From NCBI GenBank assembly GCA_024137785.1, contig JAHRHZ010000028.1:29344087-29408086 (forward strand): 64,000 nt of DNA. The letters are read 5' to 3'. Source of the stretch: Ginglymostoma cirratum (Eukaryota). A program made the position numbers and the translations under genes. The notes beneath the pieces were generated by a model that was not told the DNA's origin, did no database searches, and worked only from the letters and a program-made list of their open reading frames with translations. Shown here one piece after another: positions 9,670-50,037 of the stretch (position 1 is its first letter; the number at the start of each line of letters is the position of its first letter).

Positions 9670-10195
9670 GCACACCGGAAAAGAGGTAAGTTTCCTGTGA
9701 CGAATTGATGGGCGCCATGCTTTTTGCTGGCAGAAGGACGCAATGGAGAGTTTTGCAGGCTCCATGTTTGTTGCTGGCGGTGACTGCGTGAATTGTCAAG
9801 ACGGTTTCCGGCTGGCGCCATGTTTGTTGCTGGCAGGGGGTTGGGAACAGACTGCTTCCGGTGGGCGCCATGTTTTTTGCTGGCGCCCAGTGGCAGGCGG
9901 CGGTGGCGGCACCGCGGCGTTTGGTCGACGAGAGGTTCGATTATAGCCGCGGATTGCCGGTCCCAGACCCGCTCTTGGTACTGGTTTTACCGTTATTACG
10001 TCGCTAAGTCAGTGAGGGATAAGTGTAGGTGGCGCAAAGTCGGGTTTTAAATGCCTTTAGATCGAGCGGATCGAAGGAGCGGGTAGGCCGCGGGGGGTCG
10101 GAGAGAAGCCTCGAACTGGACTGAGACGGTTGCCGGGCGCAGTAGCCGTCTGAGCCGGCTGAGACAAAGAGGCCGGTGTACTGCAGGAAATAGGG
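9670..10195 (+). promoter_or_regulatory. ZC3H11A CpG-rich promoter and probable non-coding exon 1 (candidate donor GTAATA at 10196)
   Basis: Local CpG enrichment, four GGC(G/T)CCATG(T/C)TT(G/T)TTGCTGGC motifs (YY1-like) and ETS cores CCGGAA/TTCCGG at 9675, 9806 and 9856. Exon 1 limits are inferred. Confidence 0.65.
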
Positions 10196-10576
10196 GTAAT
10201 ATTCAACCAGTGGATCTCTGATCGTGCGTGGTTTTCTCCCCAACAAGATCTACAAGTTTAAATGATGTTGTACTGTTCATATCTGAGCACTTTTTTTTGG
10301 TGGGTGGGAGATTTTGAATGAAGCTTTTTGATTTTTAGCCCTCCGGCAGTAATCAGCCTGATGGACTTCCTGGAGGTCTACCTTAACTCGGATTTGACGT
10401 GGCAACGCCATTGCCCTTCCTGGGTATTAATCCTGACTCAGTTTGCCATCTCCCATTTTCTGGGCTTTTCTTCCATGGGGCCCCATGATGACCTTTGGGA
10501 GGTGCATGTGCTTTTGGACTTTGTCACTGGGGTAACCTAACTTCCCTTGCAAAGTTGTTGAAATTGCTATCTGAAT

Positions 10577-13300
10577 ATGAGTTTGCAAAATCCAATCTGC
10601 CCTTTTGTGAGATAGGTTTGATCAGACTGAAAAAAGTTGTCCTGGGGGTTCCATTTTTTCAAAAGAATATGGTTATGCTCAGCTCCAGAGTGCTGAATTT
10701 TAAAAATATTTTTGGCTTTCTGCCCTTCAACTTGGGCTGACTTGACATTTTTCCGTTTGCACCCTGTTTTGAATTATGCAACCAAAGTTTTTGTTTGCTA
10801 ATATTTAAATTGTTTCTATTGAATTTTTTTTTTGCAATCCTGCCTTGTAAATTGCATGGCGGATGATATATGATGAGTGCATCATGATTCACCTGGAGGG
10901 CAAATATGAATGGAATATAACTCAAAGTCATGGAGAGGGGAGGAAATAATGTTTGTAGGTGGTTCATCTGCTAAATTAAGTGGAGTTGCTTGCCATGCCC
11001 CAGAATCTGAATACCATCTTTGTTGTGGCATTAATTTTTTTAAGACCTCTTCTGAGTGTTAACTTAATTTATTCCTGTGAAGAGGAGTCCTTAAACAGTG
11101 TTCTGCTGATGGAAGCTCCCATTGATTAGTTTTTTTTTAAAATGGGAACTCAGTCTTTGACTGAGAACAAATATGCTTTCCTCCAAATTGTCACTGGATG
11201 AGATGATATGGTTTTGTAAGTGCAGAGAATACATAATTGGCACTGGGGGCATCTTCTCATTGCGTTTTACTAAATTTGTGCTCTTCCCCAGGCTGTGTTT
11301 AAATTTTGCATGATTGTCTGCAGAAAACAGCAACACCAGCCTCTTTTTGTGATTAAATGTCCCTTCTGTGTCATCCCACTTTGTCAATATACCTTTGTCT
11401 GTGGGAACTCTACAAACTGTAAAACAGATGCATTTTTAACAAAGGCTTAAGCATGTGTTTGTACAGAGCTAAACCACTTTTGGTATCATACTTAAGTAAA
11501 GCGCAATGAGCAGTAGATGAACATAAATATCAGCATGTAAAGCAGCATTATGCCTCTTATGCATAACATTCCCAAAATGGGCATTCTGATCAAATTGGCG
11601 TATTTTTGTTCTCTATGCTCCTGCCCAGCCCTCAAGCTGGTGGTAGAGCTAGGTGAAGCTCTGTGACAGAGGTATTCTTCTGGGAACCCTACTACAAGCA
11701 TGGTCTATTTTCAGATTGTCAAGTAATTAACCAGATGTTGCATCTTTTGTAAATACATCTTGTATTCAGATGGAGACCAAGCCCACTGACTTCAACATTT
11801 GCAGTTATCCCCAAAATTCCATCCCCCAAGGTCCCCCATTGTGCAACCATTTCTGAGATGTTTCAGTGTCGTGAGGTGCTGTGAAAATGCAACACTTTAT
11901 TTTGTTGCTTTGGGTCCATGTTAGAGACCTGTCATTTCTATGCCCTGTGCATCCCGGCAGTTGTTCTGACTGATCAGCTTTCAGCATTCAAATCACACTT
12001 TAACTAAATCAGTTCCAGAGTTGAAGCTTTTTTTTAAGTTTCCGTTTGTTCTCTTCAATGGATACAGCTGCAGAATTCTTAACCCATTCATTTGACACAA
12101 CCTAACTGAACCCCTCCTTTTAGACTCAGTTCATCTGAATTTGAATCCCAGCTTGGAGTCATGGTCAAGGTGCTCTTTCTGAACGCAATGGTAGCAACTC
12201 CTAATTTTTAGCTGTAATTTTGCTATGTTTGAAAACTAACTGGTTGCAGCTAACTTCTGGGCATTCGCTCTGAAATATTGAACCTTCCTGATTTTAAAGC
12301 TGCAGTATCTCCTTTTGCACATAATGTGTTCCTCTGTCTAGTGATCTGTTGATGTTGATCATGAGCTATGGTCACTCAGGAGAATATTTGATCCTATTAT
12401 CAAGTGGGTGAGTTGTGCTTCAAGCACCCAGTTTCCTGCAGAAATGGTGCTTTGCGCAGAAACTTGTAGTGTCTTCACTTGAAGAAAAAGCTGCAGTGAC
12501 TTCTCATAAGTCCAACTTCTGCATGCTGATGGCTATGTTGGGTGTTATGAATAATCCTCTCTGGGTAAACTGTAAGATCTAACTTGCTGCAAAATATTCT
12601 TCCTCTGGGTACTGAATCCCATCAGGATACATAGTGTCCATTTTGATTCACTTGCATTAGCTGGCACTGCTTGAGCTTACCAACCTTTGATCACGTTCAG
12701 AGGAGTTGTTCAGGCAGGAGCAGTAAATAACCCTACTGCAGGGCGTGTTAAGAAAAGTCTGTTTGCAAATGGGGATACTCCAGTGAAAAGGTGTTTTTTA
12801 TTGATGGAGGTTTGGGTGTCAAAGCATGCAGGGAATGCTGCTTACAAATTTGGGGAGGTTGTTTGTGCTTTTCTTCAATAGGTGCAGCTGTCCTGGAGAA
12901 GCAGAATCGGAACCCGCGTGTGTGTTTTTTTATTAATTAAATTAGCCATTTTCACCACAAAACAAATCCATAATCCAAGGCCAACCAAGGCTGCGGAATT
13001 TCGTGGAAGATTATAGAAAAAAAAGTAGGATGTTTCCCATCTGCTGTAAATGTAGCCGATGCCTGGCTACGTGATTATGAACTTTATCGGAGGAGTTGAT
13101 TTTTTAATCCCTGGCTTCCTGCAGTTCAACAGAGAAGAAGAAGGACTCATGCTAACATCTTCAAGTAGAGTATTTCTAAGGCACTTTGTGCATGCAGATC
13201 CCAAATATTTCTATGCAGTGTGTGAAGATGGAGGTGATGCTGAGCCATTTATAACTGATGGATTGAGTGTTGGTTGGCCTGCAGGGTCACGTTGACTGGA
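10577..13300 (+). pseudogene. ZBED6: Degenerate ZBED6-like hAT transposase remnant in ZC3H11A intron 1
   Basis: Colinear motifs versus human ZBED6 (recalled): LPCPR..SLLWH*FF (10990-11040; LPSTRAKTSIVWHFF), TKSVPEL (12003-12023; TKAVPQL), QAPSFLQ (12421; HVPCFLH), RKSCSDFS (12483; RKTCHHFS), WVNCK (12562; WKNLK), WVL..HSVHFDSLALAG (12606-12665; WLL..YSVHHSLGRASG), KSRMFP/SAVNVAD (13021-13060; KSFMFPSAVAVVD), FIGGVDFLI (13083-13109; FSGGDDPLI). Same intron and strand as mammalian ZBED6. Confidence 0.7.
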
Positions 13301-14199
13301 TGTCTGAAGAAACCCAACCATATTGCTGACCATTCAAAGGTACATCTACTGTTCTTTCCGATAGGGTAACTTTCCTCCATTAGTGTAGTATTAGTTTACA
13401 GTAAACACATACTGACTTTCGTATTCATGCAAGTGTGGATTAAAAGATAACCTGCTTGCATTCCTCTTCAAATTAATTTTCACGTAATCTGGTCCAAGAA
13501 CTAACATACATATAGCCATTGCAGTTATAGGTTGAGTTGGAGATTGAGACCAATTCACATTGGGTCCTTGGAACTAATATATTTATTACCTTTGTATTTT
13601 GAGGCACTTCACCATCACATTTGAAATGCTGCCTGTAAAATATCTGTTACCTGTACACTGACTGTGTCCTTTGATATTGATATGGTTAGTGCAATTTTCT
13701 TTACTTTGCCCTCCTAATTTATTCTACAGTATGTCATAGATTAATAGCATATTGCTAATATGAAGCCTTTCATTGTAAACCACCACTTTAAGTTACTTTG
13801 TCTATAGCAGCTCTAGGCCATGAATCCTCAGTTGGGTTTTGTCCAAGAGTATTTATAAGAATACGGGGATTTTGATTGTCACTTTTCTCACACAATGATG
13901 TTTTTTAAAGCCTTTTTTTCAACAAAAGAATATAATGGATGAAAACTGTCATGTTGATTTGTATCTGATGGGTGAACTCTATATTGTAACTACAGCATGC
14001 TACCCCTTGTGTAAATCACTCATTTTGCAATCTTGTTTTTCTTTTGGTTTAGATAAACGGTGAAGAAGGTTCCAGAAGATTAGCATCCTGTCGTCTCGCC
14101 GATACAGATAATCTTATATTGCAACTGAACAGATAAGAGTGTGGACAAAGTAACAGTGAAATCTTTTGTTTGTTTGGAAGGAGCTGTTATAATCCAGCC

Positions 14200-33909
<19,710 letters not shown>

Positions 33910-41494: not shown

Positions 41495-50037
<8,543 letters not shown>

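Follow-up and report, generated by a model that had tools for sequence, protein, structure and literature searches.

ZBED6 is a regulator of muscle growth that binds GGCTCG and represses IGF2. The question raised by the present locus is whether ZC3H11A intron 1 of a shark, Ginglymostoma cirratum, holds the remains of this gene, as a preliminary description proposed from a chain of ZBED6-like motifs. In the part of PMC2780926 drawn on here, no functional ZBED6 is placed outside placentals, the role is taken to have been gained after the marsupial split, and dead copies at the orthologous site in platypus and opossum are mentioned as unpublished data; the portion of PMC8035546 used here gives ZBED6 as not detectable in opossum. 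The sections of PMC3606216 used here make the ZBED6 lineage sister to C7ORF29/ZBEDX, including frog genes, with a ZBED6-ZBEDX node at 299 to 469 My (figures read from the page layout) on the same clock that dates placental ZBED6 to 20 to 32 My. The published tree thus leads one to expect a ZBED6 lineage older than mammals; its presence in this intron is another matter. In the literature covered, outside which subscription papers fell, no report of a ZBED6 remnant in a cartilaginous fish was found.

In the window, i.e., the whole 64,000-nucleotide stretch analysed (N content, 800), the host gene was identified as ZC3H11A on the basis of spliced exons that join into a CCCH-finger protein (14200-14253, then the two finger-coding exons), of the match to PF15663, and of likeness to a newt protein named ZC3H11A-like, which shares 83% identity with the product of the first finger-coding exon (Table 1). 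Exon 1 lies in a region (9700-10100) with a GC content of 0.57-0.58 and 12-23 CpG per 200 nt, and its donor, TG/GTACTG, is weak. From this donor, reads of the RNA run X21 together with a contig of the set X1 lead to three acceptors, the splice reads from 9977 going to 13125 (n=1), 13285 (n=4), and 14181 (n=3), and the 13339-14053 junction is covered by 15 X21 reads. The intron limits first proposed, 10196-14052, were thus wrong: the reads give an intron 1 of 9978-13124/13284, followed by a second intron. No splice junction at 10196 is listed among the RNA reads, and the donor proposed there was rejected, since the reads place it after 9977. The location of the motifs in intron 1 of ZC3H11A, on the sense strand, is confirmed by the RNA junctions, PF15663, and the newt likeness.

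Table 1. Features of the ZC3H11A locus and of the candidate ZBED6 remnant (positions in the window)
Feature	Position	Strand	Evidence or remark
ZC3H11A exon 1, non-coding, CpG-rich stretch	9870..9977	+	5' end not fixed
Intron 1	9978..13284	+	Acceptors 13124 and 13284; selective retention in polyA RNA
Exon 2, non-coding	13125..13339	+	Starts at 13125 in the long and at 13285 in the short form
Intron 2	13340-14052	+	RNA reads
Exon 3	14053..14253	+	ZC3H11A start codon 14200; alternative acceptor 14180
ZC3H11A coding exon, CCCH fingers	14856..14975	+	PF15663, E 3.6e-21
ZC3H11A coding exon, CCCH fingers	15269..15400 (3' end approximate)	+	PF15663, E 1.3e-14
Candidate decayed ZBED6 reading frame	10577..13200	+	Motif chain; no open frame; single copy
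Candidate BED1 remnant (S..WH*FF, then C/KRS)	10990..11090	+	Sequence
Candidate BED2 remnant (RAK, W, AV, NI, CK)	11465..11640	+	By eye against alignment rows 1-4; absent from the preliminary description
Candidate core block (VRDL, TKSVPEL, IHLT...*T, FLN, NG-TPNF, LLC, P.FL, RKSCSDFS, WVNCK, WVL, SVH, LTNL)	11920..12690	+	By eye against alignment rows 6-21
Best single match, NGS(+1)TPNF	12187..12208	+	20/25 columns identical to mouse, likewise horse ZBED6 (by eye)
Candidate C-terminal cluster (KSRMFP / SAVNVAD / FIGGVDFLI)	13021..13115	+	DDPLI part confirmed by eye; other human counterparts putative

Around the gene, an LSM-domain exon on the + strand (47179-47268) presumably belongs to SNRPE, which in human, too, follows ZC3H11A on the downstream side. 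In the promoter, at 9710-9890, a short unit is present in three to four repeats, two copies of which carry CGCCATNTT, a sequence found 4 times in the window versus 0.86 expected and which we take to be a YY1-type site. The X1 contig carries ahead of 9870 an additional 27 letters that are absent from the window at <=3 mismatches. Two related repeat fragments occupy 1100-2350 and 15400-16650, the second being interrupted by an assembly gap; both, in our view, resemble Penelope-type endonuclease ends.

The RNA evidence consists of one raw polyA run (X21, 233 reads), of X22, which gave no reads, and of the contig sets X1, whose library type is not on record, and X6, which was taken as RNA by guess. 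Over 15 bins of 10082-12991 in intron 1, X21 depth was 1.2-14 (mean, 5.8), versus 0.4 and 0.05 in the intron 2 bins and 0 in those of intron 3. Likewise, one 3207-nt contig of X1 spans 9948-13153 at a depth of 141, versus 13.5 in intron 2, and a contig of X6 covers 12510-13337 joined to three spliced exons. The depth of intron 1 being far above that of introns 2 and 3, the shark shows selective retention of ZC3H11A intron 1 in polyA RNA. This retention covers a large share of the polyA transcripts. Depending on retention and on the acceptors 13124, 13284, and 14180, the leader measures 127 to 3617 nt, and 76 upstream ATGs precede the ZC3H11A start in the retained leader versus 1-8 in the spliced forms. 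The X6 contig begins at 12510 with a 25-nt loose end, reflecting either a start inside the intron or truncation of the cDNA; we assume from its look that the loose end is a template-switch adapter. Mammalian ZBED6 is expressed by the same route, from a transcript retaining ZC3H11A intron 1 (PMC5834713 and PMC5910864, in the parts used here), the likeness in the shark being at the RNA level. Hence, selective retention in the shark argues that the ZBED6 expression route likely predates mammals, whichever reading of the intron holds.

The three frames of 9978-13339 contain 184 stops and the longest open stretch counts 82 codons, so that no protein can be made from this region. Reads and contigs differ from the assembly by small insertions at 10823, 12027, 12035, and 12632 and by 7 substitutions (alleles or assembly errors), and these four indels cannot account for 184 stops. 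Lacking the intronless open frame of >900 codons, the candidate remnant does not qualify as a ZBED6 gene and is a pseudogene at most. It is present once in the shark's own 4.36-Gb genome, 9980-11900 and 11900-13350 each giving 1 match in a search that skips very common words. One protein encoded in this genome shares 99% identity with a protein of Rhincodon typus, which places the animal close to the whale shark. Intron 1 is without repeats, which does not make it special, as a 14.5-kb stretch of the same gene is also without repeats. No stop depletion was found in the intron, and its TpA ratio of 0.59, the lowest of 21 blocks, is a weak signal; an Rfam search of the intron gave one weak match only (E 0.1). 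The longest ATG frame of the region, 13059-13292, has 78 codons, of which 48 from 13149 lie inside the long exon 2 and could form an upstream ORF; as a protein, this frame was rejected, having no Pfam family.

Re-translation of the window placed all 14 motifs of the chain as claimed, among them TKSVPEL (12003), QAPSFLQ (12421), RKSCSDFS (12483), WVNCK (12562), KSRMFP (13021), and FIGGVDFLI (13083), and the R-to-W spacing of 79 nt versus 81 expected was correct; position, strand, span, and host gene all fit ZBED6. The 14 motifs require 11 frame changes. Of the human counterparts given in the preliminary description, the 8 covered by the DNA alignment in supplement 2 of PMC3606216, i.e., TKAVPQL, TVHW..NNG, HVPCFL, RKTC..FS, WKNLK, LTSL, LMTY, and DDPLI, all agree by eye with its human ZBED6 row. 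The human N-terminus, BED1 (the putative counterpart of the BED1 candidate in Table 1), the motif KSF..AVVD, and the residues just ahead of DDPLI fall in parts left out of this alignment, which lacks the N-terminus, BED1, and two further stretches (192 and 297 columns). Of its 34 rows, the first 30 were compared by eye in the case of human, mouse, and frog ZBEDX as well as human ZBED4; the comparison took in rows 11-20 of dog and rows 1-20 of cow and horse.

Five anchors were added in this analysis, VRDL (11920), IHLT (12086), FLN (12176), TPNF (12197), and LLC (12220), and most core anchors lie inside a 25-nt diagonal band across ~700 nt. IHLT and FLN are in the same frame at the human spacing of 90 nt, and a TGA occupies the position of a W that is invariant in the family (alignment A1). 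LITF was rejected as the counterpart of LMTY, the adjacent anchors sitting in another frame. Toward the 3' side, the end of the C-terminal cluster overlaps the pyrimidine tract of acceptor 13124. D.LI.W and QR were seen by eye at 13095-13140, and the end of the putative dimerisation domain would extend into non-coding exon 2.

The claim that the remnant is full-length is not supported, as the hand scores of both BED2 (57 versus a null of 72 +- 7, i.e., not above chance) and the dimerisation domain (33 versus 50) lie below their nulls. The intron is not among the PF05699 matches, no Pfam match was found at the BED1 candidate, and no counterparts of the strong family motifs HW.STFYML and LLDP were seen by eye.

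The chain may also be a chance likeness. The intron would then be an ordinary AT-rich one, retained on its own grounds (its weak donor, or control over the dose of an mRNA-export factor), and ZBED6 would have entered it later, in the tetrapod or mammal line, to be expressed at once via retention. We consider this less likely than homology. In its favour, anyone who knows the target and is free to change frame will find chains of this kind in any stretch of 3 kb. Hand scores of the segments (BLOSUM62), which are lower bounds, were compared with the computed optima of decoys derived from 79 stored hAT proteins. On this footing the best core segment reached at most 28 units, and the best decoy segments averaged 35-37. 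Within a band of 13 nt, the top five core segments summed to 114, versus a decoy mean of 113 +- 5, a value reached by 73/158 shuffled and 22/40 real hAT decoys. With free chaining, the hand score was under the decoy mean in 4/4 settings. The chain being at the null mean, colinearity alone proves nothing, and the argument from colinearity on which the motifs had been put forward fails when taken by itself, decoy proteins chaining equally well. With a 1000-diagonal position prior, the core score was reached by 38/158 (human) and 13/158 (mouse) decoys, and with a 300-diagonal prior by 6/158 and 2/158, respectively.

A hAT profile built from 18 ZBED1-like and related proteins, with frameshifts allowed, gave 19.4 bits versus 18.3 +- 2.0 in 60 shuffles; Pfam gave a match in 0/3 frames of the intron and for 0/2 short open frames; a PDB sequence search gave 3 unrelated matches (E 0.77-4.5); and a word search with 12591-12878 gave 0/98 candidates. 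One frame of 11925-13301 had 0 phmmer matches among 1.84 billion proteins, which is weak evidence against intact relatives because this frame holds only part of the anchors. The best tblastn match to ZBED1-like hAT proteins (E 0.034) lay in a frame fitting no anchor. The many frame changes and the lack of stop depletion fit chance as well, as does the spread of the matched residues, which show no enrichment at the positions that ZBED6 and ZBEDX have in common (about 30/65 versus 115/285, by eye). The BED1 and BED2 candidates are not alike, 199-364 of 500 shuffles reaching their likeness.

Three observations stand against chance. The candidate BED1 and C-terminal clusters would lie in the right order and at roughly the spacing expected. 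Shark and mouse both depart from human at 5 anchor residues, and at 3 of these the shark has the mouse residue (by eye); it thus agrees with a non-human mammal at sites unused in picking the anchors, which were fixed on human first. Finally, the NG-TPNF segment, which was initially placed against human (IPDF), turned out to be nearer to horse and to mouse, TPNF being exact in the latter. An 18-letter pattern derived from five mammalian ZBED6 rows has one exact match in the 64-kb window, and it falls on the diagonal of the original chain. Within a decoy's best protein band, a match of such strength occurred in 0/400 and 0/820 cases with top segments masked and in 5/400 unmasked, and the joint score was reached by 4/820 decoys. 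Since this statistic was chosen afterwards and decoy degeneracy was simulated, we read it as roughly 0.02-0.05. Anywhere in the matrix, a match like NG-TPNF is ordinary (14/24 decoys), so that its weight stems solely from its diagonal. Its position on the same diagonal suggests, at the level of sequence comparison, that the chain rises above chance.

A separate insertion in the shark line of another hAT element of the Ac family, resembling ZBEDX, ZBED4, or a transposon, followed by decay, is very improbable: decayed hAT copies do exist in the same genome (L049 and L050, at 113 and 129 bits with the profile) and newts carry several transcripts annotated ZBED6 (10.1101/2022.10.19.512763, in the part used here), but at the site of the best match frog ZBEDX shows a gap and ZBED4 a different sequence, the stretch is single-copy, none of the 25 longest of the 63 repeats listed is a terminal inverted repeat, the stretch has no likeness to the shark's ZBED1-like genes, and two insertions in one intron and one orientation would be unlikely.

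Altogether, we infer from by-eye and hand-scored comparison, and short of proof, that intron 1 probably holds a heavily decayed ZBED6 orthologue. For the ancestral origin put forward initially, position, strand, span, host, intron retention, and the additional DNA match are in favour, and the colinearity offered as its own argument is at chance level. We propose that a hAT-derived gene sat in ZC3H11A intron 1 of the last ancestor shared by sharks and mammals, where it would have been translated from an intron-retaining transcript of the host promoter, like placental ZBED6. Selection would have kept it long enough to remain faintly recognisable. In the shark line, the frame would then have been lost, the sequence decaying as numerous stops and small indels built up, and retention would have outlived the gene, probably via the weak 5' splice site. 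The retained form is today predicted, from the 76 ATGs ahead of the ZC3H11A start, to be an unproductive isoform that would lower ZC3H11A output rather than a source of protein. More broadly, we lean slightly toward a history in which ZBED6 was already a domesticated two-BED gene of this intron, fed by retention, in the jawed-vertebrate ancestor, and was lost repeatedly (sharks, monotremes, marsupials, and others), placentals alone keeping it; the intron retained in the shark would be the surviving half of the arrangement.

A true remnant in the shark would make the insertion more than twice as old. It would also imply a gene functional long before mammals and lost many times, since neutral DNA would presumably not stay recognisable for so long. 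Thus, the question would shift from how placentals gained ZBED6 to why only placentals kept it, and intact or better-kept copies would be predicted in slowly evolving fishes.

The shark genome offers other hAT-derived sequences for comparison. Four intact single-exon ZBED1-like hAT genes (L012-L015; G000 C263, C8, C147, and C1) encode 658-670 aa, and relatives of L015 occur in birds, amphibians, and fishes as well as in sharks and rays. L049 and L050, with many stops and frameshifts and similar in look to each other, share this hAT origin and genome, but they score far above the intron, whose 19 bits equal the null. At L010:130-1740, a 536-codon frame carries hAT dimerisation and Hermes DNA-binding domains and, as we judge it, resembles the ZNF618 C-terminus. 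No ZBED4- or ZBEDX-like gene surfaced in the shark's own genome (lower bounds), a query with a shark ZBED1-like protein gave 82 matches, none named ZBED6, a search for ZC3H11A-ZBED6 fusions gave 1 candidate, the newt ZC3H11A, and a metagenome scan for a ZBED6 protein gave 0.

ZBEDX/C7ORF29 and ZBED4 belong to the same Ac-derived clade and have some motifs in common with the chain (K.VP.L, HLT, RK.C..F), whereas they reside at other loci (LRRC61 and ALG12) and are without the NG..PNF segment in the parts of PMC3606216 used here. With placental ZBED6, the shark stretch shares ZC3H11A intron 1, the sense strand, a single copy, a span of ~2.7 kb, an intron-retaining transcript, and the order of motifs; it differs in being without an open frame or Pfam BED/hATC and in a similarity at or just above chance. 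The platypus and opossum ZBED6 copies would be a parallel in state, dead and at the orthologous site; the candidate shark copy is far more decayed and would shift the insertion from before the monotreme split to before the split of sharks and bony fishes.
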